Translations under genes and position numbers: made by a program | The notes under the pieces: model-generated | Told to the model about the DNA's origin: nothing | Databases searched by the model: none | The model's input: only the letters and a program-made list of their open reading frames with translations | NCBI GenBank assembly: GCA_002686955.1 | Contig: NYZA01000143.1 | Span: 6,974-70,973, forward strand | Reading direction: 5' to 3' | Length of the DNA: 64,000 nt | From: Gemmatimonadota bacterium | GTDB lineage: Bacteria > GCA-2686955 | Shown here: piece after piece, positions 18,018 through 58,745 of the stretch | Layout: each line of letters starts with the position of its first letter | Numbering within the stretch: the first letter of the stretch is position 1

Positions 18018-18035
18018 GTCGGAGGGGAATCACAG

Positions 18036-20527: not shown

Positions 20528-20530
20528 AGG

Positions 20531-37211: not shown

Positions 37212-39182
37212 CTACCAGAGACTCAGAAACACGAGGGGCGGCGTCGCGGTGTTGTCCAACCGCTCGACGACGATCTGAAGACGCCGTATGCGAACGCCCG
37301 GTTCGAATCCGGATCGGAATCCAACGTTTCCACTCCTTTCGGTCAACACTGGACGCTCGAGGATCGGCGCCCCGTTCACGAGCCCCGTCAGTCGCCCGTG
37401 GTCGTTTCGAAGAGCTAAACGTGTCCACTGCCCCTCCCGCAAACGCCAAGAGCTCGAGCTGACTCCGACCGCCTCGCTACCGCGATAGTGGAGCAAGGCG
37501 CTCGAGAGGGAGTCGGTGCTGCTGACCCTGAAGGCGTGATGCGATTCGACGGTTCTTCGCGAGATGAGATCGATGCCGCCTCCCGGGCCCAAAGCTTGGA
37601 TCTCGGCGCTGATTTCGGTGATCGCGAGCTCATTCGATTCGGGCATCGCAAAAAGAAGTTCATCGAAGTGAGAAAGCGTGACGGTGGAATCCCGCCCGAG
37701 GCCGACGGGGTTCGGAGGGCGGGTGGAATCGGGGAATGCCGGCAACCAGATCCACTGGCTCGGATCGAGCACTTCGGAATGATACAGCGCGGGGTCACCG
37801 GGCAACTGGGCCCGAGAGGGTGCACCCGTTACAGTCAGCACCGTGTCGGTCATTGGAAGCGACGGCACGATTCCCGGTCGATTGTGGTACCGCCTCCCCC
37901 GCAAAGTATCGATCGCTGCGGAACCGCTTTCTGATCGCCGGCCAGGCAAGGTCACCGCGGTGCGGTCCCCCGACCGACCAAGCCGCGAGGCCACTACGAG
38001 CGTGTCGACCGTCACCATCGACGCTTCGGTTTCCTCGGACGGTCGCATCAAGACGACCAAGGTGTCGGCGGAGACCAGCTTCGTCTCCATCTCCTGGCCC
38101 AGCTCGATACGACGGGTCAAATACGGGTTGTTTTGGCCAAGCCCGCCCCCTTTTCCGCCTCTTGGCCGCAAGGGCAAATGCTGAGCCCAGATCACCGCTA
38201 CCGCCAAAAGGGGCAGGTGGAGAAGACCAACTGCGCTTTTTCGAACCGACCTGGACCGAGAGAGCCAGTGATAACGCAAACAGACGAAGCAGGCCAACCC
38301 AATGCCAGCCATACCCGCCATACCGTAACCTCCCGAAACAATCCCACCCCACATCGATCCGGCCACGATGGCGACCGCCCAGGCTGCCTGGTTGAGCGTC
38401 CTTCTGATCGCGACGACGAGACCGACTCCCGCCTCGGCCCAAACCGAAAGCGCAATCCAAAGCAGGACCACGACCGACAGATTCCTCGCCACTCGTAATA
38501 TGCGATCCAGGCGAAGGGGAGGCTTCGTCCCGGTCGGAAGAGAGGTTGCCTTGAGCTCTCTCATCCTCACTATTCCGGATAACGACTCCACGCCGATCTC
38601 ACCCCAGCCGTGACAGAGGTGAACCCAGCTTCCGTGGTCCACGCCGTTGACGTAGAGCCAATGCGTGCCCGCCCGACTCTTGATCCGAATGGAGTGCCAG
38701 GCTCCGGCCTCGAACCGGGGGATTGCCGGGACCGCCGATTGCCCGGATCGCCGGCGCGGCCCATAGACAGCTCCAGGAAGCGTTCCCAAGACCACCTCAT
38801 GACCGACGGCCGGACCAGACCCCAGAGAATCGAGTGTCCGCCGTGCGGCGCCCATTCCGACCGGCACCGCGTGAAAGCTGACGCCACACTCCCCTCCGGT
38901 GGGGAGCATCAGCTCGACCCGCAGATCGAGATCGCGAAGGAGCTCCCGCTCCAGCCGCAGCTCATCACCAGGAAAGACGACCCGCTCGCCGGCCAAACCC
39001 ACGGCGGCATCCGCCTCCACCCACCTCAGGTCGGGCGAGGGGGGACGGTAACCCGCCAGCTTCTCGTCTCCCACCGACGCCGCCATCAGCCCCGCGAGGA
39101 GCACGCAGAGCACGATCGCGAATTGGGCTATCCGTCTGAGCATGAAAAGGGCTGAGTCCTCGCCGATCGTCTTGCCTGACAC
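37212..39182 (-). CDS. Hypothetical polytopic membrane protein with beta-sandwich (lectin/LamG-like) regions
   Basis: 656 aa, first gene of the minus-strand operon with the SGNH-TPR and B12-rSAM genes. No confident family. The start may be the internal Met at 39143. Confidence 0.4.
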   Translation of the reverse strand: MSGKTIGEDSALFMLRRIAQFAIVLCVLLAGLMAASVGDEKLAGYRPPSPDLRWVEADAAVGLAGERVVFPGDELRLERELLRDLDLRVELMLPTGGECGVSFHAVPVGMGAARRTLDSLGSGPAVGHEVVLGTLPGAVYGPRRRSGQSAVPAIPRFEAGAWHSIRIKSRAGTHWLYVNGVDHGSWVHLCHGWGEIGVESLSGIVRMRELKATSLPTGTKPPLRLDRILRVARNLSVVVLLWIALSVWAEAGVGLVVAIRRTLNQAAWAVAIVAGSMWGGIVSGGYGMAGMAGIGLACFVCLRYHWLSRSRSVRKSAVGLLHLPLLAVAVIWAQHLPLRPRGGKGGGLGQNNPYLTRRIELGQEMETKLVSADTLVVLMRPSEETEASMVTVDTLVVASRLGRSGDRTAVTLPGRRSESGSAAIDTLRGRRYHNRPGIVPSLPMTDTVLTVTGAPSRAQLPGDPALYHSEVLDPSQWIWLPAFPDSTRPPNPVGLGRDSTVTLSHFDELLFAMPESNELAITEISAEIQALGPGGGIDLISRRTVESHHAFRVSSTDSLSSALLHYRGSEAVGVSSSSWRLREGQWTRLALRNDHGRLTGLVNGAPILERPVLTERSGNVGFRSGFEPGVRIRRLQIVVERLDNTATPPLVFLSLW

Positions 39183-42029: not shown

Positions 42030-42245
42030 TCAGTGCCACTCCCAGTCGATGAAGCCGGGCTGGACCTCTTCCATTGCGTTGACCATCAGCTCGACCAGTC
42101 CGCTGTAATAGATCCCCGCCTTCTCCCACGCATCGTAATAGTTGATGATATCTCGGAGCTGGCCCTTGCAGTTGCTGCATGGAGCGCATAGGTACTTCAG
42201 CGCGAGCGCTGCGCGAGCCGCACTCCGGAGCCGCCGGTCGTATGG

Positions 42246-43541
42246 CTACTTCTTGACGTCGCCGGTGGCGGCGCCGTGCATCTTGATCTCCACCTTCTCT
42301 TCCAGATTGTCGTAGTAGTTCTTCAAGATCGCGACGACCTCGGGCTTCGAGAACTCCTTCGGCACCGGCTTTCCTTCGCTCATCAGCTTGCGAAGCATCG
42401 TGCCCGACAGAAGCAGGCGAGATCCGCCCTGATACTGGCCCTCGTCGTCGATGACCGCCTTGCTATCGTGCGGGCAGGTCTTCATCGAAGCCATGGTGCC
42501 GCAGTCGTAGCAGTAGAAAGTCCAATCGAGGGGCAACGGCTGCAGATCGAGCGCGCCCTTCGGAATCTCATGGAAGATCTGCTGCGCGTCGAATGGGCCG
42601 TAGTAGTCGCCGACACCGGCGTGATCCCGGCCCACGATCAGGTGGCTGCAACCGTAGTTTTGCCGGAAGACCGCGTGGAGCAGGGCCTCACGCGGACCGG
42701 CGTAGCGCATCTCCATCGGATAACCACCCTGGATGATCCGCTCTTCACGGAAGTAGTTCTTCACGAGGGCGTCGATGGCGGAAACCCGGACATCCGCGGG
42801 GATGTCGCCTGGCTTCAGCTTGCCGACGAGCTGGTGGATGTAAACGCCATCGCAAATCTCATTGGCGATCCACGCGAGATAGGCGTGCGAATTGTGCATC
42901 GGATTGCGAAGCTGCAAGGCCGCGACCGTGCTCCAACCACGCTCCTCGAACATAGCCCGCGCCTCCGCCGGACGCTGGTAGATCTCCTTGAACATCTCGG
43001 GGTAGTAAGACTCGGAGAGCACCTTGACCGGGCCGGCGAGATTCACGTCGGCCTGCTCCATCACCTTCGCAACGCCGGGGTGCTCCGGGTCGGTAGTGGT
43101 GAAGATCTGTTTGCACTCGAAGGCCTTGTCGATCGTGTACTTCTCGGTGACCTTCATGGTCCCCATGATCGCGCCGGTTTCGGTGTCGACCAGCGCCACC
43201 TCCTCACCCAGTCCGATCGAGTCCGACAGACCTTGCTCGGCCGAGAGGGTGATCGGGATCGGCCAGAAAAGACCGTTCAGTGATGGCAGCGTGAATTCAG
43301 CGCAGCATCCTTTCCAGTCGTCCTTGTTCATGAATCCCGTCAACGGGGTGAACGCACCGATTCCCATCATGATGAGATCTGAGGTCTCCCTCGTCGTCAT
43401 CGGGACCTTCTTGAGGCCTTCGGTTTTCGCCAGCTCCGCATCCCTCTCCTGCCCGTCGAGCAGAAGCGGCTTGAGATCTTGCCCGCCATGGGGCTTGACC
43501 AACATGCTCATATTCTCTTTCTCCAGTGTGTTTCTACTCAC
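42246..43541 (-). CDS. sat: Sulfate adenylyltransferase (ATP sulfurylase, homo-oligomeric Sat type)
   Basis: ...[13 protein letters not shown]...[20 protein letters not shown]... are the canonical HxxH and GRD motifs. 431 aa. The start overlaps the upstream gene's stop (ATGA). Confidence 0.9.
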
Positions 43542-44884
43542 GAGGGCGCGAATGCCATGCGTTCATGAACCATGGCCAGCGTTCTGTAGAGCAAATGCGC
43601 GGATTTCGAGTAGGGAGTTGTCAGGAAAAGACAGAGCACGGCACCCAGGTGAACCACGTAGAGCGCGCAGTTGAGAGCGGTGGGCAGAAAGAACCGCCCG
43701 GCTTCAACGAACACACCCGAGAAGATCACCAGAGCTACGATGCTCAAGAAAAAACTGTCGAACGCCGTGGACGCACCAGATTCGGATTCCTTCGCGAGTC
43801 GATTGCGCACCAGCATGATACCATCGACGACCAGGAAGATCGCCGAGAGGTTGCCGAGTAGCTTGAAGGGGTGCTCCAGCGGCAAGGGCATGATCTCCCC
43901 CATGCCGTATATCTCTACGATCAGCAGGCCGGAGGTCACGGCGGCACCGATGAACCCCCACACCAGCGCCAGGTGACCTGTCTTTCGATTGTGGGCCGTT
44001 CCACAGTCGCCGAATCGCCGGTGCGTACCGATCTCAACCAAGACCGGCCAGAGACTCGCCAGAAACGAGCCCTGTCGCGATCCGGCGCCATCGAGCCCCG
44101 TCCAGAATCGCCACCCGCTCCGCCAGAGCGCCGCCGCCACAAGACCCGCGGTAGGGAAGAACACGGCATAGATCAAACTGTGCGGAACGAAGAGCTCGTA
44201 TGCGAAATCGCCATGCGGAAAAGGAGCCCGCGGCACGGCGAGGTGTCCGGTGATCGCCAGTGATGCCACGAAGAAAAGGATCGGTACGCTCAAGAGAACC
44301 GGCCAAGTCACGTTGGCCTTGGCCACGAGACGGCCCAGCACCGCCGGCACGGCCAATCTCTCGATTACCTTGGCTCTCACCGCCTGAAGCACATCCCCCG
44401 GGCGCGCGTTCTTGGGACACCTGGAAGTGCAGTCGTTGCATTGGTGACAAAGCCATATCGCCGGATCGGCTGCGAGCTCATCCATCAGTCCCCAACGAGC
44501 GAGCTGTACTTGCCGTCTGGGAGAGGCGATCTCCGCGGTCGTCAGATCGCAGACCGCCGTGCAGGTACCACACTGGCAACACTTCGTGATCGACTCGCCC
44601 CCTCCGGAGCGAATCGCCTTCCGATTCGCGGCGATCACTTCCGTCTCGGTCATCAAGCGAATGCGCGGGTTCCGTTCGATGCGCCCAACATTGATCTCCA
44701 TCCCACAAAGAGGTGGACAGAGTTTGGGGAAGTAGTTGTGATTCCGCAGGACGCGCCCCCCGATCGAGGGCTCGCGTTCGATGAGGACAACATCGTGGCC
44801 GGCGTCGGCGGCCTCCAGGGCCGTCGTTACTCCTGCGATCCCTGCTCCGATCGTAAGGATGGATCTCGATGCCGGTGTGGTCAC
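43538..44884 (-). CDS. Chimeric protein: HdrA/QmoA-like FAD-binding N-terminal fragment, 2x[4Fe-4S] ferredoxin, and QmoC/HdrE/NarI-like di-heme membrane domain
   Basis: N-terminal [36 protein letters not shown]...[13 protein letters not shown] is the HdrA/QmoA start. [12 protein letters not shown] and [12 protein letters not shown] are two ferredoxin motifs. The C-terminal ~230 aa are polytopic with His residues, NarI-like. Confidence 0.6.
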
Positions 44885-44889
44885 GGAGA

Positions 44890-46180
44890 ACTCCCTAGCT
44901 GAAGTTTCCCGGATCCGTCATGCAGCCATCTTGACCAGGATAGATAGAAACGAGTTTTTGTGCCGAATGCGTTCATCAGGGCAAAGTGTTCGTAAATCAG
45001 ATGGTTTCACGGCGTCGGTAAACTGTCTTCTGGCGTCAAAGAATGCGTAGAACCGTCGCGTTGTTGCGTTGTGCAGCCGTGCGGGAGTTTGCGCCGTTTG
45101 ATCGGTGTGGATCCAGGTTAGAGTGGCTGCCATCATGCAGAAGTGGAGGTGATTGGTCACCGCCACGGGGTTCCTGGTTTGGCTTCTTGCGCTGCCGATC
45201 TCCTGCTTCAGCTCCTTGAAGGCGGCCTCGATCTTCCAACGGGCAGCATAGTATTCGATGACTTGCTCCACCGTCAGGTTGAGGTCGGTGGTGAAGAGCG
45301 CAACCCAGGAGGTTTTGCGGTAGATCCATTCGGTGACGGCGAGGATAGTGCCTTGGTCGAAGGCGCGCGCAACGGCAATGAGCATCTCCCGTGCCTGTTC
45401 GATCTTGGTCTGAAACGTCACCGGGGTACGGCCAACTGTCATCTTCGCCGCGGCAATGGCCTTCTTGGAGTGATAGAAGCGGAAGGCAAGGGGCAGGCAT
45501 GCCCAGCCTCCCTTGATAGGCTTCAAGAGACCGATGGTCACGATGAGCTGCGCCCAGGCGTACCGCGTTTGGTTAGCTTTGGCAGCGTGGTCAAAGAACC
45601 ACTCGCAGCCGAAGATCTTCCTGCCGGTCTTGGGGTTGATGCTGTCATCAATGGCGACAAGCAACCGCTCATCAACGTATGGAGATGGGATCATCATCCA
45701 TACCGTGCTCCAGAGCTCCGCCCAGCGCAGCTTCGGTGGGGCCATAAACGTGTAGTAGCGGCGGAGGCTCACGCTCTCACCGAAGACCCAATGCAGAGCT
45801 CGAAGGAGATTTGAGGTACGTGCTGTCGAGAAGGGCATGATGATGGCCAGCATCGTCGAAACGAACCAGCGCGCCCTTTCACTACCGTTACGAGATGCTG
45901 GGAAAACCATACTCAAAGGACGAAGCAGATCGGCTACACTGGCCATGGAACGGGGCATCTCTTATGGTGTTGGCTGTCTTTTGTTCTCACGTAAGACATC
46001 ACCACATACGAGGTTCCCGTTCCACACCCCTGTCCGCTGTGACGGCGCCGACGCAGCGTGCCGATCGTAGCGCCGTGCCGCGCCACACACCAAACACGTG
46101 GCCGCTAAATAGGACGCAAAAGCCTGGCGACACTATATGCGTTCACAAGTGCCGCGATCTGCAACTGCGTCAATTATATT
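44890..46180 (-). mobile_element. IS4-superfamily insertion sequence (boundaries approximate)
   Basis: Contains the transposase 44918..45958. GC content is visibly lower than the flanks. It is inserted between the qmo-like gene start and a truncated cbiA. Terminal inverted repeats could not be located by eye. Confidence 0.4.
44918..45958 (-). CDS. DDE transposase, IS4/IS701-like
   Basis: C-terminal YAARWKIEAAFKELK is the Y-(2)-R-(3)-E-(6)-K signature of IS4-family transposases. 346 aa. Confidence 0.75.
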   Translation of the reverse strand: MPRSMASVADLLRPLSMVFPASRNGSERARWFVSTMLAIIMPFSTARTSNLLRALHWVFGESVSLRRYYTFMAPPKLRWAELWSTVWMMIPSPYVDERLLVAIDDSINPKTGRKIFGCEWFFDHAAKANQTRYAWAQLIVTIGLLKPIKGGWACLPLAFRFYHSKKAIAAAKMTVGRTPVTFQTKIEQAREMLIAVARAFDQGTILAVTEWIYRKTSWVALFTTDLNLTVEQVIEYYAARWKIEAAFKELKQEIGSARSQTRNPVAVTNHLHFCMMAATLTWIHTDQTAQTPARLHNATTRRFYAFFDARRQFTDAVKPSDLRTLCPDERIRHKNSFLSILVKMAA

Positions 46181-46800
46181 GTGTCGCTACACGGCCACGG
46201 AACCGTGAAACTTCAATCAAGAGGATCGCACTCGACGGCCCATCTCGCGAGATTGACCGACACATCGGTCGTGCTGGTCGTCGACGTATCGAAGTCGACA
46301 CGTACGGTTGCCGCCCAAGTGCTCGGCTGCCGAGAGCTGGAACCGGATTTGCAGCTCCGGGGCGTCATCCTCAATCGTGTCGGCACCAGTCGTCAGGAGA
46401 AGGTGATTCGAGAGGCGATCGCCATCGAGACCGGATTGCCAGTCCTCGGCGCGATTCCCCGACTCGAAAGAGAGCTGCTACCCAGCAGATATCTCGGTTT
46501 GGTCACCGCGTTCGAGCACCCGAGAATGACGGAGGTTCTCGGTAAACTGGCCACGCTTGCCGAAGAGCGGATCGATCTCTCGCAACTGCTCGAAGTCGCG
46601 CGCTCCGCGCCAACTCTTGCGCGGCTGGCGCCGCATCGTTCACACACCAGTGTTTCCAAGCCGGTCAACATCGGCGTCCTCAGAGATCGTGCGTTCTCCT
46701 TTTACTATCCGGAGAATCTCGAAGCGATCGCGGGGAGCGGCGCGGAGCTGATCGAGATCTCGCCGCTCCGGGACTCCACGCTGCCCGCGATCGATGCACT
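46181..46800 (+). pseudogene. cbiA: Cobyrinate a,c-diamide synthase (CbiA/CobB) internal fragment
   Basis: ...VVLVVDVSKSTRTVAAQVLGCRELEPDLQLRGVILNRVGTSRQEKVIREAI...LPVLGAIPR...NIGVLRDRAFSFYYPENLEAI...ISPLRD... is collinear with the CbiA middle region. The N-terminal P-loop part is absent (it begins at the IS edge), and the GATase part is lost after IDALYAI. Confidence 0.55.
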
Positions 46801-47115
46801 CTACGCTATCTGCACGCGCTCGGAACCCCGGAATGGGCTCCAAGCATGGCGCGAGCCGCCGCGGGAGGCTGGCGATGAACGACGAATCGGGCACCAACGC
46901 TCTCACCGCACCCGCGGTCGTGCTGGCCGTGGCGGAAGAGAATCCCACGCTTCTGGTTCCGGTGATCCCGGACCTTGTGCGCCTCAGCGCGGATGAGGAT
47001 CTGCGTCCGGATCTCGCGTCCGCCCTGTCCATCGTCGTCGATCGATGTCCGGGCGAGCTTGGTCGCTCTCTGACCGATGCAGTGAACACGGAACTCAGGA
47101 GGAGAGGTCGACGTC

Positions 47116-47700
47116 ATGCCTAGTGGACGAACCGGGAAGATCCCCGGCCTCGAGCAAGCCGTCCGGGCGCGACCGGAATCCGCGCAAGCTCATTTCAAGC
47201 TCGGAACCGCGTTCAAGGAACTGGGGCAGCTCACGAAAGCCGAGGAGGCCTTGCGCAAGGCGACGGAACTGGATCCATCGATGTACGAGGCGTGGGTGAA
47301 TCTGGGGGGCGTGCTCTTCGCACGGTGGGATTTCGCGGGTAGCGTCGAGGCCAACCGCAAGGCCGTCGAGTGCGATCCGGAATGCGTCCGGGGACACTAC
47401 AACTTGGGGCTCGGGCATCTGTACCTCAACCGCCCCGAGGAGATGGTCGAGAGCTTCAAGCGAGTTGTGGAGTTGGACAAGGAGAATGCCGGAGGTCACC
47501 ACCACCTGGCGATCGTCCAAAACGCGCTTGGCGATCTGAACCAAGCGATCATCAGTCTGGAAAGAGCCAAATCGCTCGGATTCTCTCCAGACCCTTCATT
47601 CATCAAAGAGATCGAGAAAGCTCTGTCCCGTCGCGAAAGCGAAGGCGGAGTCGTCTCGTTCGAAATAGACAACCACCCCAGAGAAGACAGCTCGGATTGA
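47116..47700 (+). CDS. TPR-repeat protein
   Basis: Four to five TPR-like repeats (AHFKLGTAFKELGQLTKAEEALRKATELDP..., YNLGLGHLYLNRPEEMVESFKRVVELD...). 194 aa. Confidence 0.55.
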   Translation: MPSGRTGKIPGLEQAVRARPESAQAHFKLGTAFKELGQLTKAEEALRKATELDPSMYEAWVNLGGVLFARWDFAGSVEANRKAVECDPECVRGHYNLGLGHLYLNRPEEMVESFKRVVELDKENAGGHHHLAIVQNALGDLNQAIISLERAKSLGFSPDPSFIKEIEKALSRRESEGGVVSFEIDNHPREDSSD

Positions 47701-47716
47701 GCAAAGGAGATCACTC

Positions 47717-48034
47717 GTGGCGGATTTTCAAGTTGGCGACTACACCATCGAGATCGACGAAGACGGTTTCATTCAGGAACCGGACCGTTGGGACGAGGCC
47801 GTGGCCCTGGCGCTGGCGGGAACGGAAGGAGTATCCGACCTCACGGACGACCACTGGAAGGTCGTCAATTTCCTGCGTGAGTACTACATCGAGTTCGGCG
47901 TGGCTCCGATGATTCGCAAACTCTGCAAGGCCACCGGCTTCAAGCTGAAGGAGATCTACGATCTCTTCCCCTCGGGCCCCGCCAAGGGTGCCTGCAAGGT
48001 CGCGGGTCTGCCCAAACCGACGGGCTGCGTCTAA
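47717..48034 (+). CDS. dsrC: DsrC (TusE/DsrC/DsvC family), intact C-terminal arm with both cysteines
   Basis: C-terminus ...EIYDLFPSGPAKGACKVAGLPKPTGCV matches the DsrC signature (CysB...PKPTGCV-end). 105 aa. DEDGF, HW(K)VV..LREYY and GxAPMxR blocks are present. Confidence 0.85.
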   Translation: MADFQVGDYTIEIDEDGFIQEPDRWDEAVALALAGTEGVSDLTDDHWKVVNFLREYYIEFGVAPMIRKLCKATGFKLKEIYDLFPSGPAKGACKVAGLPKPTGCV

Positions 48035-48328
48035 CGCGAGTGCGCGCGCCCCGGCAATCCGGTGTTGGTGGAGCGAGCCGCCCACCAAACGATTCCGGGC
48101 GTAGCGTCCCGCCGGCGGACGGAAACCGAGCTTTGATCGCCATGGCCGAGGAACATCCAACAGCTCACGCTGCCGTGGATCAAGCCAAATTCCGTCGACA
48201 ACCCACACGGCAGCGGCGGTGTTTGGGCGCGCCTGGCTCTTGAGGTGTTGCTTTTCCGATCGCTTTTTCGCAACACGAGTACGACGGTGCGCCCCGACGG
48301 CACGGTTCTTCACACTCCCTCCAAATAG

Positions 48329-48949
48329 TTGTGGGCGGCTTCCCTCGGCTTCCATTGGTGTTTCCTCGTAGTGGTGATCAGGCACATGGGCTTCTTCACC
48401 GACCCGGTTCCCCGAGTAGTCAGTTCTCTTTCCGGACTGGACGGATTCCTCGATATCGGCGTACCGGGTCTGCTCTTATCCGGTGCCTTCCTCTTCGCCG
48501 CCACGCTCTTTCTCCTCGGACGAAGGCTCTTCTCCGCGCAGCTTCGTTACATCTCCCTTCCGGCGGACTACTTCCCTCTCTTCTTGATCGTATCGATCGC
48601 CGCCACCGGTCTCGCCCTGCGGCATCTCGCAAAGACCGATATCGCTTCGGCGAAGGCGATGATCATGGGACTCGTCACATTCGCGCCGGCTTCGGGCGCG
48701 GAGCTCCACTGGCTCCTATATGCGCATCTGTTCCTCGTTTGCGTGCTCTTCGCCTATTTCCCATTCAGCAAGCTCATGCACGCCGGAGGAGTGTTCCTGA
48801 GCCCCACTCGGAACCTCGCCAACGACAACCGGGCGACGCGCCACATCAATCCATGGAATCCGCCATTCGAGGTCTACAGCTACGAGCAGTACGAAGACCA
48901 GTTCCGAGACAAGATGAAGGCGGCCGGAATCCCGGTAGAGAAGGAGTAG
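48329..48949 (+). CDS. dsrM: DsrM-like (NarI/HdrE family) di-heme membrane subunit, possibly N-terminally short
   Basis: 206 aa from a TTG start, 4-5 TM helices with conserved His, and a C-terminal cytoplasmic tail (NPWNPPFEVYSYEQYEDQFRDKMK). A stop lies immediately upstream, and no N-terminal extension is found in other frames. Confidence 0.55.
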   Translation: MWAASLGFHWCFLVVVIRHMGFFTDPVPRVVSSLSGLDGFLDIGVPGLLLSGAFLFAATLFLLGRRLFSAQLRYISLPADYFPLFLIVSIAATGLALRHLAKTDIASAKAMIMGLVTFAPASGAELHWLLYAHLFLVCVLFAYFPFSKLMHAGGVFLSPTRNLANDNRATRHINPWNPPFEVYSYEQYEDQFRDKMKAAGIPVEKE

Positions 48950-48952
48950 GCG

Positions 48953-49330
48953 ATGGCACACGAACCACAACCCGACGAGATGGTCTACTACGACCGAGAC
49001 GAGCTCTCGAACGTGCGAATCGCCCTTCCCGAAACGGGATGGATGGATACCCCGGTGGATCTGCGGCCCGGGAGCTTCATCTATCCCGCGAAGGGCAAGC
49101 ACCTCGAATACCTCGGGATGGCGAATCCCAGGCAATGGGCGCCGGCCGATCAAGACTGGAAGCTGCCCAGCAACTGGAAGGAGATCATCATAGACGGTAT
49201 CCGTGAGCGCCTGGACAAGTACCGTTCATTCCAAGTGTTCATGGATATCTGCGTTCGTTGCGGCGCCTGCTCCGACAAGTGTCACTTCTACATCGGAGGC
49301 GGCGATCCAAAGAACATGCCTATTCGGGAG
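48953..49330 (+). pseudogene. dsrK: dsrK N-terminal fragment (HdrD-like; about 125 aa incl. CVRCGACSDKCHFYIGGGDPKNMP)
   Basis: The first ~125 codons of ORF 48953..49534 match the DsrK N-terminal ferredoxin region. The frame then diverges, and the remaining ~400 aa (CCG domains) are absent. Confidence 0.6.
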
Positions 49331-49811
49331 TCGCAGCTACTGGACATTGCTTGGTGTCCTGGCTCTCATGGTTCTCGCCGGATTGTCCTGCTACCTCTAC
49401 CAGTTGAAGATCGGGCTGACGATTACCGGCTTGTGCCGGGACGTGCCCTGGGGCTTCTACATCTCGCAGTTCACCTTTCTCGTCGGCATCGCTGCGTCGG
49501 CGGTGGTGCTGATGTTGCCGTACTACCTACATGATTTCAAGGCGTTCGGGAAGATCGTGATCCTGGGCGAGTTTCTGGCGATCTCAGCGGTGATCATGTG
49601 CATGCTCTTCATATTCGTGGACATGGGACAGCCGACCCGTGTGCTCAATGTTGCTCTCTTCCCGACTCCGAATTCGCTCATGTTTTGGGACATGACGGTT
49701 CTCTTCGGCTATCTGGTGCTCAATGTCGTCATCTCCATGGTGACGTTTCGGGCTGAAATGCAGGGGGTTCAACCGCCAAGATGGATCCGCCCGAAGCTAC
49801 AGCCGGAATAG
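49331..49811 (+). pseudogene. dsrP: dsrP (NrfD/PsrC family) N-terminal fragment joined out of frame to dsrK; C-terminally truncated
   Basis: The alternate frame from about 49330 reads RSYWTLLGVLALMVLAGLSCYLYQLKIGLTITGLCRDVPWGFYISQFTFLVGIAASAVVLMLPYYL..., the N-terminal NrfD-family pattern. Only about 160 aa remain before the stop at 49811. dsrJ and dsrO are absent. Confidence 0.55.
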
Positions 49812-51107
49812 GTGGGGGGACCTGACGCCACGAAGTGCGTTGCGTGTATCTACCACAACAGGGCCATCGGGCGAGCGCAGCAATGTGTAGTCAAAAGCCT
49901 CGTGATCGGTAATCACTACGATACAATCCCTGGCGGCGATCTCTTGCCCATCGAAGGCGACGGATTCCAGTTCGACGCTTCCCGCGGCGTAGGTAGGAAT
50001 CATCGGATCGCTATAGGCAACGTTCGCCCCCCACTTGGTGAGCTGCTCTATCACATCGAGCGCGGGTGATTCTCGAGAATCGTCCACGTTCGGCTTGTAG
50101 GCAACCCCGGCGATCAAGACGCTCGCGCCGCGCACCGCCTGAGAACGGGAGTTCAGTGCCTCCGCCACTTTAGTAGCGACATAATGAGGCATGCTCGTGT
50201 TCACATGTCCCGCCAATTCGATGAATCGCGCTTCGAACCCATGCTGTCGAGCTTTCCAGGAAAGGTAGAAAGGATCGATAGGAATGCAATGACCACCGAG
50301 CCCCGGACCGGGATAGAAAGGGGTGAATCCGAATGGTTTTGTAGCCGCCGCCTCGATGACCTCCCAAACATCGATGCCCATCTCGTTGCACATTAGCGCC
50401 AATTCGTTTACCAATCCGATGTTGACACTTCGAAAAGTGTTTTCGTGTAGCTTCACCATCTCGGCGACTCTCGTCGATGAGACGGGCACGACATGGTCGA
50501 CCGTCTTGCGATAGAGGGACTGGGCTACGTTGGTGCATGTCGTCGAGTGACCACCAACCACCTTCGGGATGTTGCGTGTGTGAAAACGTGCATTACCGGG
50601 GTCCACACGTTCCGGAGAAAACGCCAGGAAGAAATCCTCAGCGACTCGCAAACCGGTGCTCTCGAGCCTTGGTAGGATCAGCTCGTCGGTCGTACCCGGA
50701 TAGGTCGTGCTCTCAAGGATCACGAGCTGACCGGTACGCAGGTGCTTCGCGATCTCCGTGACCGCAGCGGCGATGTACGAGACATCCGGGTCTTTCGTCT
50801 TACGGAGCGGTGTCGGCACACATATATTTATCGTATCGACGCTTGCGAGCAGCGAGAAGTCCGTGGTTGCGGTCAATCGACCCTCTTCGACCTGGGCGGC
50901 GAGGTCCTCGGATGACACATCGCCAACGTACGATTCTCCTCTGTTGATCCGCGCACACTTCGTCTCGTCCACATCGAAGCCGAGGACCGACATGCCCGAG
51001 CGAGCGAACTCGCATGAGAGCGGAAGTCCGACGTAACCCAAGCCGATCACTCCACAACGTACTGTTCCGGATTCGATCTTTTCGGTCAGTTCCTGTGCGC
51101 GGCTCAT
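49797..51107 (-). CDS. Nucleotide-sugar dehydrogenase (UDP-glucose/UDP-ManNAc 6-dehydrogenase family)
   Basis: N-terminal VIGLGYVGLPLSCEFA (NAD Rossmann), catalytic Cys region, and a UDPG_MGDP_dh C-terminus. 436 aa. Its start overlaps the upstream response-regulator stop. Confidence 0.85.
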   Translation of the reverse strand: MSRAQELTEKIESGTVRCGVIGLGYVGLPLSCEFARSGMSVLGFDVDETKCARINRGESYVGDVSSEDLAAQVEEGRLTATTDFSLLASVDTINICVPTPLRKTKDPDVSYIAAAVTEIAKHLRTGQLVILESTTYPGTTDELILPRLESTGLRVAEDFFLAFSPERVDPGNARFHTRNIPKVVGGHSTTCTNVAQSLYRKTVDHVVPVSSTRVAEMVKLHENTFRSVNIGLVNELALMCNEMGIDVWEVIEAAATKPFGFTPFYPGPGLGGHCIPIDPFYLSWKARQHGFEARFIELAGHVNTSMPHYVATKVAEALNSRSQAVRGASVLIAGVAYKPNVDDSRESPALDVIEQLTKWGANVAYSDPMIPTYAAGSVELESVAFDGQEIAARDCIVVITDHEAFDYTLLRSPDGPVVVDTRNALRGVRSPHLFRL

Positions 51108-52318
51108 GGGGCGTTCTCTTTTGATTGTTTCGGTGGTTTCTCGTGGTCGGTCCGCTCAAACGAGAGTGAGCGATGGATATCGATCATTTGGACTCCGCCA
51201 GCGTACTGGGTCGTGACGACATTGGCCAAGCCGGCGAGCTTCTTGGTAATCTCTCTGATGCGAAGGCTCTCGCGCTCGATGCTCTGAAGCTTGCGGATGA
51301 TATCCGCATTTGCATCTGGGTGTTTGCGGAGAAGTAGATCGGCATTACCCATGATCGAGCAGAGCGGGTTGTTGATCTCATGGTTGATACTAACCGCGGC
51401 TTCCGTAACGGCCGCAAGCCGCTGAACCCGAACGAGCTCATCTTGCTTCTCTCGCAATGCGCGCATCGCGGCGGAGGTGGCCTTGTACTGCCGCAGCAAC
51501 TCCTTGTTCGACAACCAGAGACGTGCCATCAGTTGCCGATTCTCGCTCTTGAGACGGTTTCTCACCCAAGCCTCTTCGAGAAAAGCCTCCAGCTTTCGGT
51601 GCTCCAACGGCTTGGTCAGATACTCGTCGGCGCCGATCTTCATCGCCTCGACCGCGACCTTCTCCGACCCGAACGCCGTCATCATGACGACGAGAGCGTC
51701 CGGATCGTCCCTTCTGATCGCCTTTAGAACCTCGAGTCCGTTGGGGGCCGGGATCTGTATGTCGAGCAAGACGACGTCGGGTCGAAACGATCGGAAAAGC
51801 TCGAGGGCGCTTGCACCGTCCGCGGCGTGAGAGACGGTGTACATTTCATGTCCAAGCCGAAGGCGAACCAGCTCGGCATTGTATTCGTTGTCCTCGACCA
51901 AGAGCAGTTTCCGCCTCTTCGATTCGTCCGAATCCACATCACCCGGGCGGAGAAGGGACCGGGCGACTCGCTCGAGCTCTCTGAGATCGACGGGCTTCGG
52001 CAGCGAGGCATCTACCGCGAGCTCCTCCTCACTCACGAGCGTGTCATCGATCAAGAGGGGAGAAACGACCATGATCGGCACCCGCTGGTTTCGCCCCTTC
52101 TTGCGAGCCCTCTCGATCACCTCGAATCCGGACAGGCCATCGAGCATCAGGTCGAGAACGAGGAGGTCGAAGGGGTCGCTCATCAGCGCGGCCAGGCCCG
52201 CCTGACCGTCGACGAAGGGGATCACGTCGGCAGGGAGCCGCTTCAGAACCGCCGCCGTAGCCCCCACGGACTCTCCATCTCCGTCGATCAGACAGATCCG
52301 GAATCTTCTACTCTCCAT
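51104..52318 (-). CDS. Tandem receiver (REC-REC) protein with C-terminal HisKA/DHp domain but no HATPase_c domain
   Basis: Two CheY-like REC domains (...LLVLDLMLDGLSG..., ...VVLLDIQIPAPNGLEVLK...TAFGSEK...). H-box VSINHEINNPLCSIMGNADLL. Only ~95 aa follow, lacking N/G1/G2 boxes. Confidence 0.7.
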   Translation of the reverse strand: MESRRFRICLIDGDGESVGATAAVLKRLPADVIPFVDGQAGLAALMSDPFDLLVLDLMLDGLSGFEVIERARKKGRNQRVPIMVVSPLLIDDTLVSEEELAVDASLPKPVDLRELERVARSLLRPGDVDSDESKRRKLLLVEDNEYNAELVRLRLGHEMYTVSHAADGASALELFRSFRPDVVLLDIQIPAPNGLEVLKAIRRDDPDALVVMMTAFGSEKVAVEAMKIGADEYLTKPLEHRKLEAFLEEAWVRNRLKSENRQLMARLWLSNKELLRQYKATSAAMRALREKQDELVRVQRLAAVTEAAVSINHEINNPLCSIMGNADLLLRKHPDANADIIRKLQSIERESLRIREITKKLAGLANVVTTQYAGGVQMIDIHRSLSFERTDHEKPPKQSKENAP

Positions 52319-52546
52319 CTGGACTCCGATCCCGTCGCACTCCTATTGCGAAAAGGGAAGCTGATTTCGGCCGATGTTTCAACCATGGCCGGCCACCCGC
52401 GCCGGGCTTCCGGTTCCGATCTCTACCACCCACAAGCGCTTCCTCTTGTCGATGGACCCAAGACTCCAGTTTAGCATGACCCGCGGAACCCGGCGCCGCG
52501 ATCCCGGGCAAGTGTGGCGGCAGCCTGCAGTCGAGGGAAGCTGGGC

Positions 52547-55369
52547 ATGAGCGACTCCAATCACGCGAAACGAAAACCCGGCAGTCGGCAACCGACATTC
52601 AGGATCGCGATCGCCGACGATGATCGCACGGCCAAGCTCACGAGACGCGGCTGTCCCCACGGCCCGGCTCCTCGGGAGGAGGAACTGAGAGAAGCGGCTC
52701 TGAGCGCTGGAGTCAAGATCCCTCTCCCGAAGGGGATCAGCGAGAAAGTCTCGAAGCTCTGGGACAAGCTCCGCGGCGGAGGGGCGTCACTCGTGATCGC
52801 GCGGGCCCTCGCGCCGGTTCCCCCGACTCCCGGCACCTGGGAGCTACGCGATAATCCGCCCCTGCCCGTCCGCCGGGGCGAACCGTTGGCCCGCTGGTTG
52901 GAAGGTGAGGCCGGAAGAGACGGTGTATCGATACGCAGAAAACGAATTCGCGCGCCCGAGCTGAAAACAGGCGTGAGACCCTGTTCGGCCCGGATCCGAG
53001 TCATGGAGGGAAGTGCGGCGGCGGTCGCGAGGCTATTCGGCGTCCCCACTCTCGAAAAGGGATTCCTGGATCTAGTGCCGTTGATCGCGCTCTCGCCCGA
53101 CCGTCTAGAGGCCACGGCGACAATCCCCCCGATGCTTGCCTGCAAGGCCGAAGTCACGGGGAAGATGATCATCACAGCGGTTCGTGCGTGCGGCGTTGTT
53201 CACGGAGTGGATGAGGAGGGAATCACCGCGGCTGTAAAGGTGGCGAGGGCGAGCCAGAAGCCGGTCGCCGCGGTCCCAATCGCCTCCGGAACCAAGCCCA
53301 CCGCGGGCGAGGTCTCCCGTTACGACTTTTTCGCTGCGGAGGACGCCGCCCTCACGCCCGGCTCGATCATCGCTTCTCGAAAGGTACGAGCAACCGGTCG
53401 AGACGGCCAAGATGTCACGGGCCGCAGGATTCGCTTCGATTCCGCGGAAAGACCGGAGCTCCGCGCAGGCGTTGGCGTGGAGCTCGACGAGGAGTGTGGT
53501 GAGCTCGTCGCGACCAGATACGGCCAGCTTCGCTTCTTGGGGGAGGAGATCGCGCTTCGGCCACTCATCAAGATCTCGGCGGACCGTCTCTCGGCCGCGA
53601 TGGAGGCTTTTGCGACTGTCGCGGTGATCCGACGCAACGACAGGGGTGCAATTGAGAGCGACGAAATCGAAACCTCGGAGGAGATCCTGATCCAGGCTCT
53701 CCTTCACGATGGAATCTCGGAAGCGCGGATCCTGCCCGAGGAGGTGGGCGCTCTGGCCCGAGACTGTCGCGAATTGGGCCCGGACGCCGAGCGCGGCGCC
53801 CGCCGACTCGTCGCCAGAGGAATCCCCGCGCGCAAGGGCGAAGACGCCACAATCGATTTCGAATTCATGATCGATGGGGACGACCCGATCCGCACCTTCG
53901 GCGATCCTGGGGCTCATTTGGGCGATCGGTGGATCGATGTTGGCCAGATACTCGCCACCAAAACCGCACGGGAAGAGGGAGATGATGGAGTGGGAGTCGA
54001 CGGCGAAGCGATCGAGGCGGAGTCGGGGCGCGATCTGATGATCGAGGCGGGGGAAGGCGTCGAGGTCGATCGATCCGGGCTCGTGTTCGTCTCGCATGGC
54101 CCAGAGACAACTCTGCCTGCCCTGTGTGGAAGCACCCTCACCTGTGAGAGCATGGTGGGGGTCTCGGAGGATCTCCTGCTGGCGCATTTCCCGAGAGACG
54201 GTGCGCGGAAAGGACTGACGATCCCGGACCGTGCGGGAATCGTGGCGGCGCTCCGGCGGGCAGGTGTCGAGCACGGTATCGTCGACGCAGAGGTGGACTC
54301 TCTGGCCGAGAAGGCGGGAAAGACCTGGACTCCGGGAACGCCTCGGATCGAGCTCGCGGTCGGAACCCACCCGGCTCACGGCGAGCCCGCTCGCTTCGTC
54401 TGCCACATCGATACACAGAACAAGTTCGTAGGCGCGGAGGGGGACGAACGGGTGGACTTCAGAGAGATGATCCACTCTCGCGCGGTCGAAGAGGGCCACC
54501 ACCTGGCCTCGCGCGTGCCACCCACCAAGGGCGCAGCACCGGGCAAGAGCGTGCTCGGCACGGAACTGGCCTGTAGGGATGGCTTCGACCGTACTCCGCG
54601 CCCCGGACGGGGCGTCAGGCTCTCGGAAGACGGCCGCGAGTACTACGCGACACGCGAAGGCGTCTACAATCAGCGGAAGAACTCGATCGAGGTCTTGGAG
54701 AACTACGTCGTCGATGGCGATGTCGATTTCTCCGTGGGCCATGTAGACACCAAATGCATGGTCACCGTCGAAGGAACGGTCGCCGCGGGTTTCGATGTCC
54801 GCGCCGATGGCCCGGTCTTCGTGGGTCGCTCAGTCGAAGACGCTGTCATTCGAACGACCGCGTCGGTCTATGTCGGAGAAGGCATCTACTTTGCCAGCCG
54901 AGCCGAGGTGTACGCGGGGGAAGAGGTCGATGTGGCCGTCGTCGATCGGGCTTTGATCGTTGCTGAAGGGGACGTAATGGTGCGCCGAGAAGCGATCAAC
55001 GCAGACATCCGAACGCTTGGAACCCTACGCTTCGGTCGGGTGAAGAGCAGAGCTGTGGGTGGAGCATTGAGAGCCGCGAAGAGGATCGAGGCAGAGACGA
55101 TCGGCAGTGAGTTGGGCACCACGACTCTCGTGGAGGTCGGTGCCACCGTGGGCCTCAGCGACGATGCCCCCCCCGAGCCACCGGAAACGGGCTGGGCCAA
55201 TCTAATCCCCCGAAACGGAGGGTACGGGGCCACGGTTCGCGTGAGAGGAAAAGTGCATCCAGGCACGATCATCAGAATTCTCGCTTGGTCTCGAGAGTTG
55301 CACGAGACGATGGCGGGCGTAGAGTTCTACCTCGATCCGGACTGGACTATCCGAACCAGGAACCTGTAA
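52547..55369 (+). CDS. Giant FapA/DUF342-family protein (flagellar-assembly-protein-A-like beta-solenoid C-terminus, extended N-terminal region)
   Basis: The C-terminal 250 aa show the DUF342 repetitive V-x-V-x-G-D-V solenoid (...VVDGDVDFSVGHVDTKCMVTVEGTVAAGFDVRADGPVFVGRSVEDAVIRTTASVYVGEGIY...). Three upstream segments each resemble the FapA pre-solenoid region. Start at 52547 or 52514. Confidence 0.55.
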   Translation: MSDSNHAKRKPGSRQPTFRIAIADDDRTAKLTRRGCPHGPAPREEELREAALSAGVKIPLPKGISEKVSKLWDKLRGGGASLVIARALAPVPPTPGTWELRDNPPLPVRRGEPLARWLEGEAGRDGVSIRRKRIRAPELKTGVRPCSARIRVMEGSAAAVARLFGVPTLEKGFLDLVPLIALSPDRLEATATIPPMLACKAEVTGKMIITAVRACGVVHGVDEEGITAAVKVARASQKPVAAVPIASGTKPTAGEVSRYDFFAAEDAALTPGSIIASRKVRATGRDGQDVTGRRIRFDSAERPELRAGVGVELDEECGELVATRYGQLRFLGEEIALRPLIKISADRLSAAMEAFATVAVIRRNDRGAIESDEIETSEEILIQALLHDGISEARILPEEVGALARDCRELGPDAERGARRLVARGIPARKGEDATIDFEFMIDGDDPIRTFGDPGAHLGDRWIDVGQILATKTAREEGDDGVGVDGEAIEAESGRDLMIEAGEGVEVDRSGLVFVSHGPETTLPALCGSTLTCESMVGVSEDLLLAHFPRDGARKGLTIPDRAGIVAALRRAGVEHGIVDAEVDSLAEKAGKTWTPGTPRIELAVGTHPAHGEPARFVCHIDTQNKFVGAEGDERVDFREMIHSRAVEEGHHLASRVPPTKGAAPGKSVLGTELACRDGFDRTPRPGRGVRLSEDGREYYATREGVYNQRKNSIEVLENYVVDGDVDFSVGHVDTKCMVTVEGTVAAGFDVRADGPVFVGRSVEDAVIRTTASVYVGEGIYFASRAEVYAGEEVDVAVVDRALIVAEGDVMVRREAINADIRTLGTLRFGRVKSRAVGGALRAAKRIEAETIGSELGTTTLVEVGATVGLSDDAPPEPPETGWANLIPRNGGYGATVRVRGKVHPGTIIRILAWSRELHETMAGVEFYLDPDWTIRTRNL

Positions 55370-55475
55370 TGCGACGCTCGGCGCTCAAGCTGATTCGAAA
55401 TCCGTCGATCGGATGGAAGGAATCCCGTCCGCCCGAAGCCGAGCAACGCGGCGGAAAGACGAAAGGAACGGGGAC

Positions 55476-56213
55476 ATGACAGATTCGATCGCCCTGACAG
55501 TGGGCGCGGAGCGTACCGAGCGTTGGGCCCAGGCGCTGATCCTGGCCGGTTTCAACATCGTGAGCGGCGAGCAGACCGGAGAGGCCAATCTAGCGATCGT
55601 CGACGGAACCGTCGGGTCGGGACCAGCCGATGTTCCAACCCTGCGAATCCCCGCTGGCGAGGATCCGCCACCGGAGCGAGTGATCGCGCTGGTTGCGGGA
55701 AAGCTCGAGGAGATCCGCCGAGAGTGGTTCGCGGCGGGAGTCGATCCTGTCACCGGGATGCCGGGGCGTGAGAGTCTATTTGCCCGCGTGGAGAACGAGG
55801 TGGAGCTCTCCGCGCGCATCATGAAGCCATTCGCTGCCGCGATCCTGGATCCGGACGGCATCGATTCGCTTGCCGCTGGCCTGGGCCAAGAGGCCGCGAA
55901 TCGAGCACTGTCCGAGTTCGCCCAATTCGTTCGACAACGCCTGCGTCGCGTCGACGGTCTGGGTCGCTGGGGAAGCGAGGAGATCGCGCTCATCATGCCC
56001 GCCACCTACCCAACACAGGCGATGACCGTTATCGCCCGACTCCAGGACCATCTCGCTGGAAGCGATCTTGCCCCGGGACGAATCCGTTCCTTCACCGCCG
56101 CCGTTGCGGCCTATCCGATCGACGCGGATTCAGCCGGCCGTCTCATGGAGCTGGCGGAACAACGACTGGCCGATGCCCGCCGCAAGGGCGATGGCCGAAT
56201 CGTGATGGTGTAG
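55476..56213 (+). CDS. Degenerate GGDEF-domain protein (G-S-E-E-I active-site motif, RxxD I-site retained) with degenerate N-terminal REC-like domain
   Basis: DPVTGMPGRESL (DxLTGLxNR-like), RRVDGLGRWGSEEIALIM (I-site RRVD 5 aa before GSEEI instead of GG(D/E)EF). RBS AAGGAA upstream of the ATG at 55476. Confidence 0.6.
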   Translation: MTDSIALTVGAERTERWAQALILAGFNIVSGEQTGEANLAIVDGTVGSGPADVPTLRIPAGEDPPPERVIALVAGKLEEIRREWFAAGVDPVTGMPGRESLFARVENEVELSARIMKPFAAAILDPDGIDSLAAGLGQEAANRALSEFAQFVRQRLRRVDGLGRWGSEEIALIMPATYPTQAMTVIARLQDHLAGSDLAPGRIRSFTAAVAAYPIDADSAGRLMELAEQRLADARRKGDGRIVMV

Positions 56214-58050: not shown

Positions 58051-58745
58051 GCTCGTGGCTTTGGATCGCGGCGATCTACCTTGGACTCCGTTACTTTGGG
58101 TTTTTCGGGCTCGGTGTGCTCCTGGCGGTGGTTCTGCTCGGGCAATGGACCGCCCGTCTCGTGGCGCTGGCGGCTCAGCGGTCCCGATTCCTGGCGCAAC
58201 GGAGAGCGGAGCTCGCCAATCCCGCGGACTATGGGGCTCGCCACCAGCTCGGAACGATCTATCTGCGGGCACGACGCTATGCGAAGGCCGCTCACTATCT
58301 CGAGGACGCCCTCGAGCTCATGCGAAAGAGCCCGCACGCGGAACCCGATCCGCAGTTGATCATGGACTGTGCGCGCGTTCGCTTCGCCCGGAGGGATTTC
58401 GCCGGCACGGCGATCTTGGCGGATGAGGTTGCACAGCGGCATGCGGCGCATCGAGTGGGTGACGCCAATCTCCTCGCCGGGCGCGCCCATGCCGCCACCG
58501 GCGCGTCCAACGAGGCTCTCGTCCATTTCGAGCAAGCGGCTGAACGAGCCCCTTCCTCGGCGGAAGCCGCCTTCCGGTGGGCGCGCGCACTTGCCGCGCG
58601 AGGAGAGGGAAGAAGGGCGTCGGCCGTGCTGCGTGGTTTTCAGACCGCTTCCGCCGGCGCGCCGGCATTCGTACGCCGCCGCGACCGCTGGTGGCGCCTC
58701 GCGATCGTCCTCTTTCCGGCGCTTCGTTTCTTGCCCCTCCGCTGA
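58047..58745 (+). CDS. Membrane-anchored helical-repeat (TPR-like) protein, hypothetical
   Basis: GTG start overlapping the NUDIX stop (GTGA). Two N-terminal TM helices (WLWIAAIYLGLRYFGFFGLGVLLAVVLLGQW), then Ala/Arg-rich helical repeats. Confidence 0.4.
   Translation: MSSWLWIAAIYLGLRYFGFFGLGVLLAVVLLGQWTARLVALAAQRSRFLAQRRAELANPADYGARHQLGTIYLRARRYAKAAHYLEDALELMRKSPHAEPDPQLIMDCARVRFARRDFAGTAILADEVAQRHAAHRVGDANLLAGRAHAATGASNEALVHFEQAAERAPSSAEAAFRWARALAARGEGRRASAVLRGFQTASAGAPAFVRRRDRWWRLAIVLFPALRFLPLR

Follow-up and report, generated by a model that had tools for sequence, protein, structure and literature searches.

A probable relic of a dissimilatory sulfur supercluster in a marine Gemmatimonadota lineage

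Comparative analysis of a 64,000-nucleotide (nt) stretch from a Gemmatimonadota bacterium (contig NYZA01000143.1, positions 6,974 to 70,973; hereafter the window, to which coordinates refer) indicates that positions 42030-49796 are very probably a vertically inherited dissimilatory sulfur supercluster that has decayed to a non-functional relic in a marine Gemmatimonadota lineage, designated W. The ancestral set comprised sat, qmoABC, aprBA, dsrAB, dsrL, dsrN, dsrC, dsrMKJOP, siroheme-synthesis genes and a dsrM2K2/redox-sensor module, and about 6.5 kb is left of an ancestral cluster of about 35.5 kb: 21 of its 32 genes are absent, seven persist as fragments and four are open (sat, qmoC as a fusion, a TPR gene and dsrC). 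Breakpoints determined by DNA alignment to an intact relative correspond to at least eight separate deletions, together with one nonsense mutation and one IS701 insertion sequence (IS). Because DsrAB, AprBA, QmoB and DsrJO are gone and DsrMKP is broken, we conclude that this pathway sustains neither sulfur respiration nor sulfur oxidation; the requirement for the Dsr, Apr and Qmo components in the dissimilatory pathway is well established (e.g., PMC6018796).

Inventory of the probable relic, and intact clusters in relatives

Searches with QmoC and DsrC homologs, followed by contig look-ups, led to three related lineages: R (loci L010, L011, and L177) and R2 (L184), which contain intact clusters, and a sister lineage, S (loci L014-L016 and L180-L183). 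The supercluster of R contains 32 genes in 35,478 bp, against 7,767 bp for its counterpart in the window, 1,316 bp of which are the IS. Its order is dsrK2, dsrM2, response regulator, PAS kinase, HmcF-like-REC, HmcE-like, Macro, sat, qmoC, qmoB and qmoA, continuing with a CxxCxxCC protein, a small open reading frame (ORF), aprA, aprB and lysR; a divergent part follows with dsrA, dsrB, a small ORF, dsrL, dsrN, a gene for a protein of 155 amino acids (aa), TPR, dsrC, an RsbRD_N protein, dsrM, dsrK, dsrJ, dsrO and dsrP, and the cluster ends with siroheme-synthase-like and CoA-disulfide-reductase-like genes, after which there is a convergent UDP-glucose dehydrogenase gene. R2 has the same order as R from aprBA to the siroheme synthase gene, giving a common architecture aprBA-lysR-dsrAB-(small ORF)-dsrL-dsrN-x-TPR-dsrC-RsbRD_N gene-dsrMKJOP-siroheme synthase. 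The small ORF 3′ of dsrB in these relatives had no DsrD match in Pfam or NCBIfam, and therefore we do not claim a reductive direction for the ancestral pathway. Beside sat, R also carries a redox-sensing module (L010 13092-20973) with an HmcE-like membrane protein, an HmcF/TmcB/DsrK-like Fe-S protein fused to a receiver domain, a PAS histidine kinase, a response regulator, dsrM2K2 and a further response regulator.

Every surviving piece in the window lies in the order of R, with the same dehydrogenase at the right flank, as seen by tblastn of R proteins and by DNA alignments, and the protein identities of these pieces to R are 62-93%. The identity and truncation of each piece were established with family models (Pfam, NCBIfam) and tblastn with the proteins of the intact relative. 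The features, from left to right, are as follows.

42030-42197 (-), remnant of a dsrK paralog (dsrK2/HmeD-like), last 55 codons plus stop; left edge of the relic
42198-42245 (-), deletion junction J1 (42198/42216), 7.44 kb missing; DNA alignments to L010 stop at W 42216 (R 12485) and restart at W 42198 (R 19927)
42246-43541 (-), sat (ATP sulfurylase), intact; NF003166 473 bits, PF01747, PF14306
43538-44884 (-), QmoA'::QmoC in-frame fusion ORF, 448 aa; QmoA residues 1 to ~86 plus QmoC from ~residue 12 to the end
about 44618-44649, deletion junction J2, 3.3 kb missing; QmoA residue ~86 fused in frame to QmoC residue ~12
44900-46215 (-), IS701-family element, 1316 bp, with 19-nt terminal inverted repeats (44900-44918 and 46197-46215) and transposase ORF 44918-45958; about 10 kb replaced, from the CxxCxxCC gene through dsrN residue 126
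46211-46866 (+), dsrN remnant (siroheme amidase, CobB homolog), residues 127-325 in one frame and 441-483 in another; residues 326-440 lost by internal deletion
46857-47102 (+), remnant of the 155-aa DVU0298-family-like gene, residues 68-149 (tblastn 67% identity); residues 1-67 lost by truncation
47116-47700 (+), TPR protein, intact ORF (Pfam TPR families), directly upstream of dsrC
47717-48034 (+), dsrC, intact; PF04358 130 bits
48035-48157 (+), deletion junction J6 (48032/48157), RsbRD_N gene and dsrM residues 1-67 lost (about 0.8 kb); W 48032 = R 10316 and W 48157 = R 11248 by DNA alignment
48158-48949 (+), dsrM pseudogene, residues 68-330 of the ortholog; nonsense mutation, TAG at 48326-48328
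48953-49342 (+), dsrK pseudogene, N-terminal 125-130 of 542 residues
49311-49796 (+), dsrP pseudogene, residues 3-163 of 389, in another frame than dsrK'
49320-49348, deletion junction J7, rest of dsrK, dsrJ, dsrO and at least the first two dsrP codons lost (about 2.45 kb)
49794/49801, deletion junction J8, 4,235 bp lost: rest of dsrP, siroheme-synthase-like gene and CoA-disulfide-reductase-like gene
49797-51107 (-), UDP-glucose/GDP-mannose dehydrogenase (Pfam), native right-flank gene, not part of the sulfur set

The left edge was delimited by the dsrK2 remnant, which matches residues 479-533 of the 533-aa DsrK-like protein of the relative (tblastn, 91% identity) and whose DNA aligns as W 42198-42030 to R 19927-20095. 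Deletion J1 removed the Macro, HmcE-like, HmcF-like-REC, PAS kinase, response regulator and dsrM2 genes as well as dsrK2 residues 1-478. Gene callers place the start of Sat at 43511 (421 aa), and the protein of the window aligns without gaps to residues 1-419 of Sat from R, with 93% identity. The stop codon of the fusion ORF abuts or overlaps the start of sat, as the qmoC stop does in R. Residues 89-440 of the fusion match positions 7-360 of the 360 in the NCBIfam qmoC model (356 bits), residues 3-85, a short N-terminus of FAD type, match an HdrA-like model, and in tblastn the region is matched by QmoA residues 1-124 and QmoC residues 12-374 from R; J2 removed the remainder of qmoA and the whole of qmoB. 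Of 775 matches, those with this architecture all belong to the protein cluster of the window.

The IS sits 16 nt upstream of the start codon of the fusion, abutting the qmoA start, while its other end abuts dsrN codon 127. What is missing at this site, in the order of R, is the CxxCxxCC gene, aprBA, lysR, dsrAB, the small ORF, dsrL and dsrN residues 1-126. The inverted repeats are 89% complementary and the transposase scores 228 bits with NF049999 (cutoff 170), in two stretches (model positions 2-189 of 412 and then the C-terminal motif) with around 90 model positions missing; its ORF has 346 aa, against models of 363-449 positions, and the transposase is probably internally deleted and inactive. 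We found no target-site duplication in the bases flanking the element (CTAGC vs ATCAA), which would be compatible with an IS-associated deletion of the 10 kb. Compared with IS701-family elements in general, this copy is alike in its above-cutoff transposase and its 19-nt terminal inverted repeats, but differs in the absence of a target-site duplication and in the split transposase match.

Between the IS and dsrC, the two parts of the dsrN remnant show 66% and 47% identity (tblastn) to the 486-aa DsrN of the relative. A cobB/cbiA-like ORF at 46181-46996 (+) matches positions 98-282 of the 420 in the NCBIfam CobB model; its assignment as a cobalamin gene was rejected, since it is the ortholog of dsrN, located between dsrL and dsrC in the relatives. 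The DVU0298 assignment of the intact ortholog of the next remnant is a sub-threshold NCBIfam hint (37.7 bits vs a cutoff of 75). In R as well as in R2 an ortholog of the TPR gene occupies the corresponding place, and that of R is 62% identical. DsrC, named "TusE" by NCBI, keeps both C-terminal cysteines (...GACKVAGLPKPTGCV), ends in ...GAC...PTGCV and has an unchanged C-terminal arm.

To the right of dsrC, the longest ORF of dsrM', which lost the first 67 codons, is 48329-48949 and covers positions 116-320 of the 320 in NF038037 (tblastn 69% identity). Residues 1-130 of DsrK are matched with 75% identity (NF045796 positions 9-82 of 453), and dsrP' shows 82% identity in tblastn (NF045798 positions 4-147 of 346). 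At J8 the DNA alignment joins W 49794 (R 15328) to W 49801 (R 19564). The dehydrogenase gene adjoining J8 is also present in R (L177), likewise convergent on the end of the cluster, and its C-terminal part is 83% identical at the protein level. In the window as a whole, DsrA and DsrB from the relative had no tblastn match, aprA, aprB and qmoB are absent save for a weak paralogous match, and dsrJ and dsrO are absent.

These results modify an earlier reading of the same DNA from its letters and ORFs (the original prediction). Its calls of an intact sat and an intact dsrC hold, Sat being full length and DsrC having both cysteines, as do the absence of dsrJ and dsrO, the chimera of an HdrA/QmoA N-terminus with a QmoC-like protein, which is the in-frame fusion described above, and the dsrK N-terminus running out of frame into a dsrP fragment (48953-49342 and 49311-49793). 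It was right on a fragment and on an IS, though the cbiA fragment is a remnant of dsrN rather than a cobalamin gene and the IS4-type transposase belongs to IS701. Conversely, dsrM had been taken as intact, whereas it aligns only from residue 68 of its ortholog and contains an in-frame TAG at 48326. The sulfur region had been extended to 52318, of which the part up to 49796 stands; the last 2.5 kb (49797-52318) are native flank genes, namely the dehydrogenase and a response-regulator/HisKA protein with two receivers (51104-52318), unrelated to sulfur metabolism. Two remnants had been overlooked, the dsrK-paralog C-terminus at 42030-42197 (-) and the DVU0298-like fragment at 46857-47102 (+).

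Recurrence of the junctions and erosion in a sister lineage

Six different assemblies of marine metagenomes, several of them from Tara Oceans samples, have a contig with the exact DsrC sequence of the window. The identity of these six contigs to the window is 99.66-99.99%, with 0 gaps, and five of the six reach at least 99.96% (99.96-99.99%). The dsrK/dsrP junction at 49.3 kb, where the original prediction had suspected an assembly error, is covered by five assemblies with 0 gaps and no more than six mismatches over 7.5-20 kb; three of these five contigs reach from sat past the right flank, the five span every or most junctions, and the sixth contig overlaps part of the relic region. The eight deletion junctions and the TAG stop are the same in the five independent assemblies. 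Additionally, the fusion protein and DsrC of the window recur in a metagenome-assembled genome (MAG) of the W population at NCBI, both being deposited under Gemmatimonadetes/Gemmatimonadota MAGs, and the nearest Sat loci among species-representative genomes are in two Gemmatimonadota MAGs (97% and 93% identity). The source of the window is a short-read metagenome assembly and one related contig (L002) has a 94-nt artefactual end, so chimeric joins or collapsed strain variants, generated during assembly or binning, could be invoked for the broken junctions; but because the same DNA recurs ungapped in five independent assemblies, from different samples and assemblers, the junctions are not assembly errors, and we give practically no weight to an artefact.

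In contig L002, from Tara, nt 1-94 depart from the window sequence and match window 37955-38052 at 98%, a stretch that overlaps and lies slightly farther on; probably the end of the contig was misassembled, without consequence for the finding. A scan of metagenome contigs with the DsrM fragment retrieved only relatives of up to 63% identity, the close Gemmatimonadota relatives not being among them.

Variation within the W population is concentrated in the relic. The 20 kb shared by the six assemblies contains 11 single-nucleotide polymorphism (SNP) sites, all within 43931-46916; eight of them fall in less than 500 bp (46420-46916) of the remnants of dsrN and the 155-aa gene, and the others are at 43931-43932 and 45739. 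No SNPs occurred among these assemblies in ~6 kb of left flank, in 8 kb of right flank or in dsrM', dsrK' and dsrP'. Neutral drift in dead DNA may explain this cluster of SNPs, as may a short tract of recombination.

The sister lineage S, whose Sat and DsrC are 97% identical to those of W, has been eroded in a different way. It retains qmoB (the C-terminal part was seen), qmoC, sat, Macro, dsrJ, dsrO, dsrP, siroheme synthase and an intact dsrC; nothing is left of dsrM, and dsrK residues 1-79 and half of the RsbRD_N gene have also gone. In the QmoC of S, a Cys-to-Arg substitution in the first CxxCxxCxxxC motif removes one Fe-S cysteine ligand. Two S loci that are 99.9% identical (L180 and L181) are set apart by a dsrJ nonsense mutation, from Arg to stop, and by one 1-nt indel; the indel likely causes their differing disruptions of the dsrK reading frame, and pseudogenisation appears to be still segregating in the S population. 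W and S share none of the comparable breakpoints; therefore, at least the erosion that can be seen is independent and ongoing. Moreover, since S carries other deletions, and disabling mutations that still vary between assemblies, the erosion is both recent and parallel.

Pairwise ratios of nonsynonymous to synonymous substitution rates (dN/dS) are low for the fragments, 0.05-0.25, with 0.045 for dsrP' between W and S. As even dead fragments show low values, most of the divergence between W and S took place under constraint and the decay is recent. For the same reason, pairwise dN/dS was uninformative as a test of co-option, certainly dead fragments being also low, and we used branch-wise counts instead; a comparison of the QmoC/Sat divergence ratio with that of distant functional lineages was likewise discarded, as saturation made the values not comparable. 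Synonymous/nonsynonymous counts on the W branch are 42/5 for sat, 16/1 for dsrC, 32/20 for qmoC and 23/13 for dsrP', and 23/6 for the intact dsrP on the S branch; these counts are approximate, as dS to R is near saturation (1.2-1.8). The nonsynonymous/synonymous ratio of qmoC is around five-fold above that of sat on both branches. In W, sat and dsrC thus remained under strong purifying selection, whereas dsrP' looks relaxed in W and qmoC in both W and S.

Origin of the locus and fate of the surviving genes

A drop in GC content (guanine plus cytosine) at about 42-52 kb, noted in the original prediction, is real: GC is 0.592 in 42030-52318 and 0.642 in the rest of the window, and sliding-window analysis places the lowest 10-kb stretch there (Mann-Whitney on 1-kb bins, p = 1.3e-5, bins not being independent). 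Nevertheless, the sulfur genes, at 0.69-0.83 (sat having 0.83), equal the flanking genes (0.66-0.83) in GC at third codon positions (GC3), the orthologs from R have the same total GC, about 0.59-0.63, and the kilobase bins with the lowest GC (0.57-0.58, at 49-52 kb) consist almost wholly of two native flank genes. We therefore attribute the dip, which comes from the first and second codon positions and from non-coding remnants, to the composition of conserved proteins and to decaying non-coding DNA.

The same observations bear on whether the locus arrived as a genomic island, already with Dsr/Qmo genes, that is now decaying in its recipient. The total GC five points below the rest of the window, the IS inside the region and a synteny with the relative that is shown for the right flank only would all fit such an import. 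Against it, the closest homologs of Sat, QmoC, DsrC, DsrK and DsrP are from Gemmatimonadota relatives with an intact cluster, one of them with the same right flank, which indicates that the locus was inherited and not recently imported. There is no tRNA gene in the 64-kb window and no integrase among the ORFs examined, the internal IS701 being the sole mobility gene found in the region, and it has been argued that DsrAB was not horizontally acquired in Gemmatimonadota (PMC11316326). We consider the island already largely refuted, and its probability very small. Hence, from the proposal of a laterally acquired or ancestral Dsr/Qmo locus in reductive decay, ancestry and decay, with an IS inside, are borne out and lateral acquisition is not.

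If the locus is an inherited relic, its history could be pictured as follows. The pathway would have become dispensable in the W lineage, with recent deletions accumulating independently in W and S. Survival of sat would be due to assimilatory sulfate activation, the most likely reason in our opinion. The qmoA'::qmoC ORF would remain open mainly because sat lies at the tail of the operon and needs transcription and translation through from the side of the IS, so that a still-translated, in-frame upstream ORF may keep sat expressed. Finally, dsrC and the TPR gene upstream of it might still be selected for some role, or might simply not have been hit yet.

Several observations weigh against this account or limit it. 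Synteny with R is demonstrated for the right flank only, and the part ascribed to the IS in the 10-kb deletion derives solely from the missing target-site duplication. A promoter scan found no sigma-70-like site, leaving expression of sat from the IS as an inference. As broken fragments have equally low dN/dS, low values are no proof of present selection on sat or dsrC, and the saturation mentioned above makes the branch counts that replaced them approximate. Furthermore, the analysis covers the 64-kb window and loci of ~20 kb, and a second, divergent dsr/apr set could exist elsewhere in the genome. A search with DsrA from R against 5.8 billion proteins retrieved R, then R2 at 85% and then distant lineages, with no sequence attributable to W or S though W has been assembled repeatedly; this argues against a second copy of the pathway, without being whole-genome proof.

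An alternative is that the genes that remain intact form a reduced, co-opted system with a present-day role beyond sulfate assimilation, in which QmoA'::QmoC would go with Sat, and DsrC with the TPR protein; DsrC might, for example, serve by itself in sulfur relay or regulation, with QmoC as a membrane redox module. The ORFs of sat, dsrC, TPR and the fusion are open in all assemblies, in DsrC the two cysteines are kept and the C-terminal arm is unaltered, strong purifying selection is seen for sat and dsrC on the W branch, and both genes are intact also in the independently eroding S. However, the high nonsynonymous proportion of qmoC on both branches and the lost Fe-S ligand of QmoC in S speak against such a system; only about 86 of the 418 residues of QmoA are left in the fusion, with which the flavoprotein cannot form, and the partners of DsrC, DsrAB and DsrK, are absent or broken. 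With dead fragments at equally low pairwise dN/dS and such recent erosion, intactness may simply mean too little time, and we regard a co-opted system as unlikely. A related proposal, which we likewise hold unlikely, is that in two lineages which lost DsrAB independently selection keeps a two-cysteine DsrC with its TPR partner and a sat at the end of an IS-fronted operon; DsrC would have a DsrAB-independent role in sulfur relay or redox regulation, and the fusion would either keep sat expressed or be a new membrane redox protein. The co-option of sat, dsrC and dsrM suggested in the original prediction fails for dsrM, truncated and with a stop, and survives for sat and dsrC only as plausible retention by selection (42/5 and 16/1).

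Other features of the window lie outside the relic. A FapA-domain protein (940-951 aa) followed by a GGDEF diguanylate-cyclase-type gene (52514-56213, +) suggests, together with the two-receiver HisKA protein at 51104-52318, a signalling neighbourhood beside it. Further right, at 58640-63853 (-), a 1737-aa ORF with two sets of UvrA DNA-binding and interaction domains and ABC ATPase domains, around twice the normal length of UvrA, may be a UvrA paralog formed by duplication or fusion; the stretch around it is also of lower GC (0.598). On the left, 17439-21735 (+) contains co-directional, overlapping genes for a UbiX-like flavoprotein, a UbiD-like decarboxylase, the AcnX large and swivel subunits and an amino-acid-kinase-family protein, which we take to be an archaeal-type modified mevalonate set (phosphomevalonate dehydratase, anhydromevalonate-phosphate decarboxylase and isopentenyl-phosphate kinase). 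Such a set would be unusual in a Gemmatimonadota bacterium.

Implications and comparison with known systems

The region offers an unusually legible snapshot of the dismantling of a respiratory cluster, with many independent deletions, one IS and parallel erosion in S, and it documents the loss of a supposedly ancient sulfite/sulfate-reduction trait in a repeatedly recovered marine Gemmatimonadota population. It is also a warning for annotation: a marker-based approach would score sat, qmoC, dsrC, dsrM and dsrP here, and could wrongly assign dissimilatory sulfur metabolism. Likewise, it constitutes a natural test of which parts of the pathway, such as sat and dsrC, have value outside of it. We found no published description of the W relic in the literature.

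Partial loss of an ancestral sulfate-respiration set, with some of its parts kept, has precedents. There are Pelotomaculum that keep dsrAB without reducing sulfate. Taurinivorans muris has AprAB and DsrAB-DsrC and lacks Sat and QmoAB (PMC10507020). Nevertheless, both keep and use the DsrAB-DsrC core, whereas in the window the core is deleted and sat, dsrC and debris are left; the window differs further in its many readable breakpoints and in having a sister lineage that erodes in parallel.

The closest known systems are complete clusters. Marine Gemmatimonadota of Groups 2 and 3 have DsrAB/Sat/AprAB/QmoABC clusters that are regarded as ancient in the phylum (PMC11316326), and the cluster of peatland Acidobacteria includes sat, aprBA, qmoABC, dsrABCLN, dsrT, dsrMKJOP, dsrM2K2 and dsrV/Wa (PMC6018796). 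The intact clusters of R and R2 agree with both published architectures. The window resembles both in its gene families, in the order rebuilt from its fragments and in its closest homologs, but with 21 of 32 genes absent, seven in fragments, and DsrAB, AprBA, QmoB, DsrJ and DsrO missing, it cannot be a functional member of either group. The capability for sulfate reduction has been described as quickly lost when unused (PMC6018796), and the W relic is a well-resolved new example of a known process, pathway loss; as such it is clean but ordinary, and no new kind of system.

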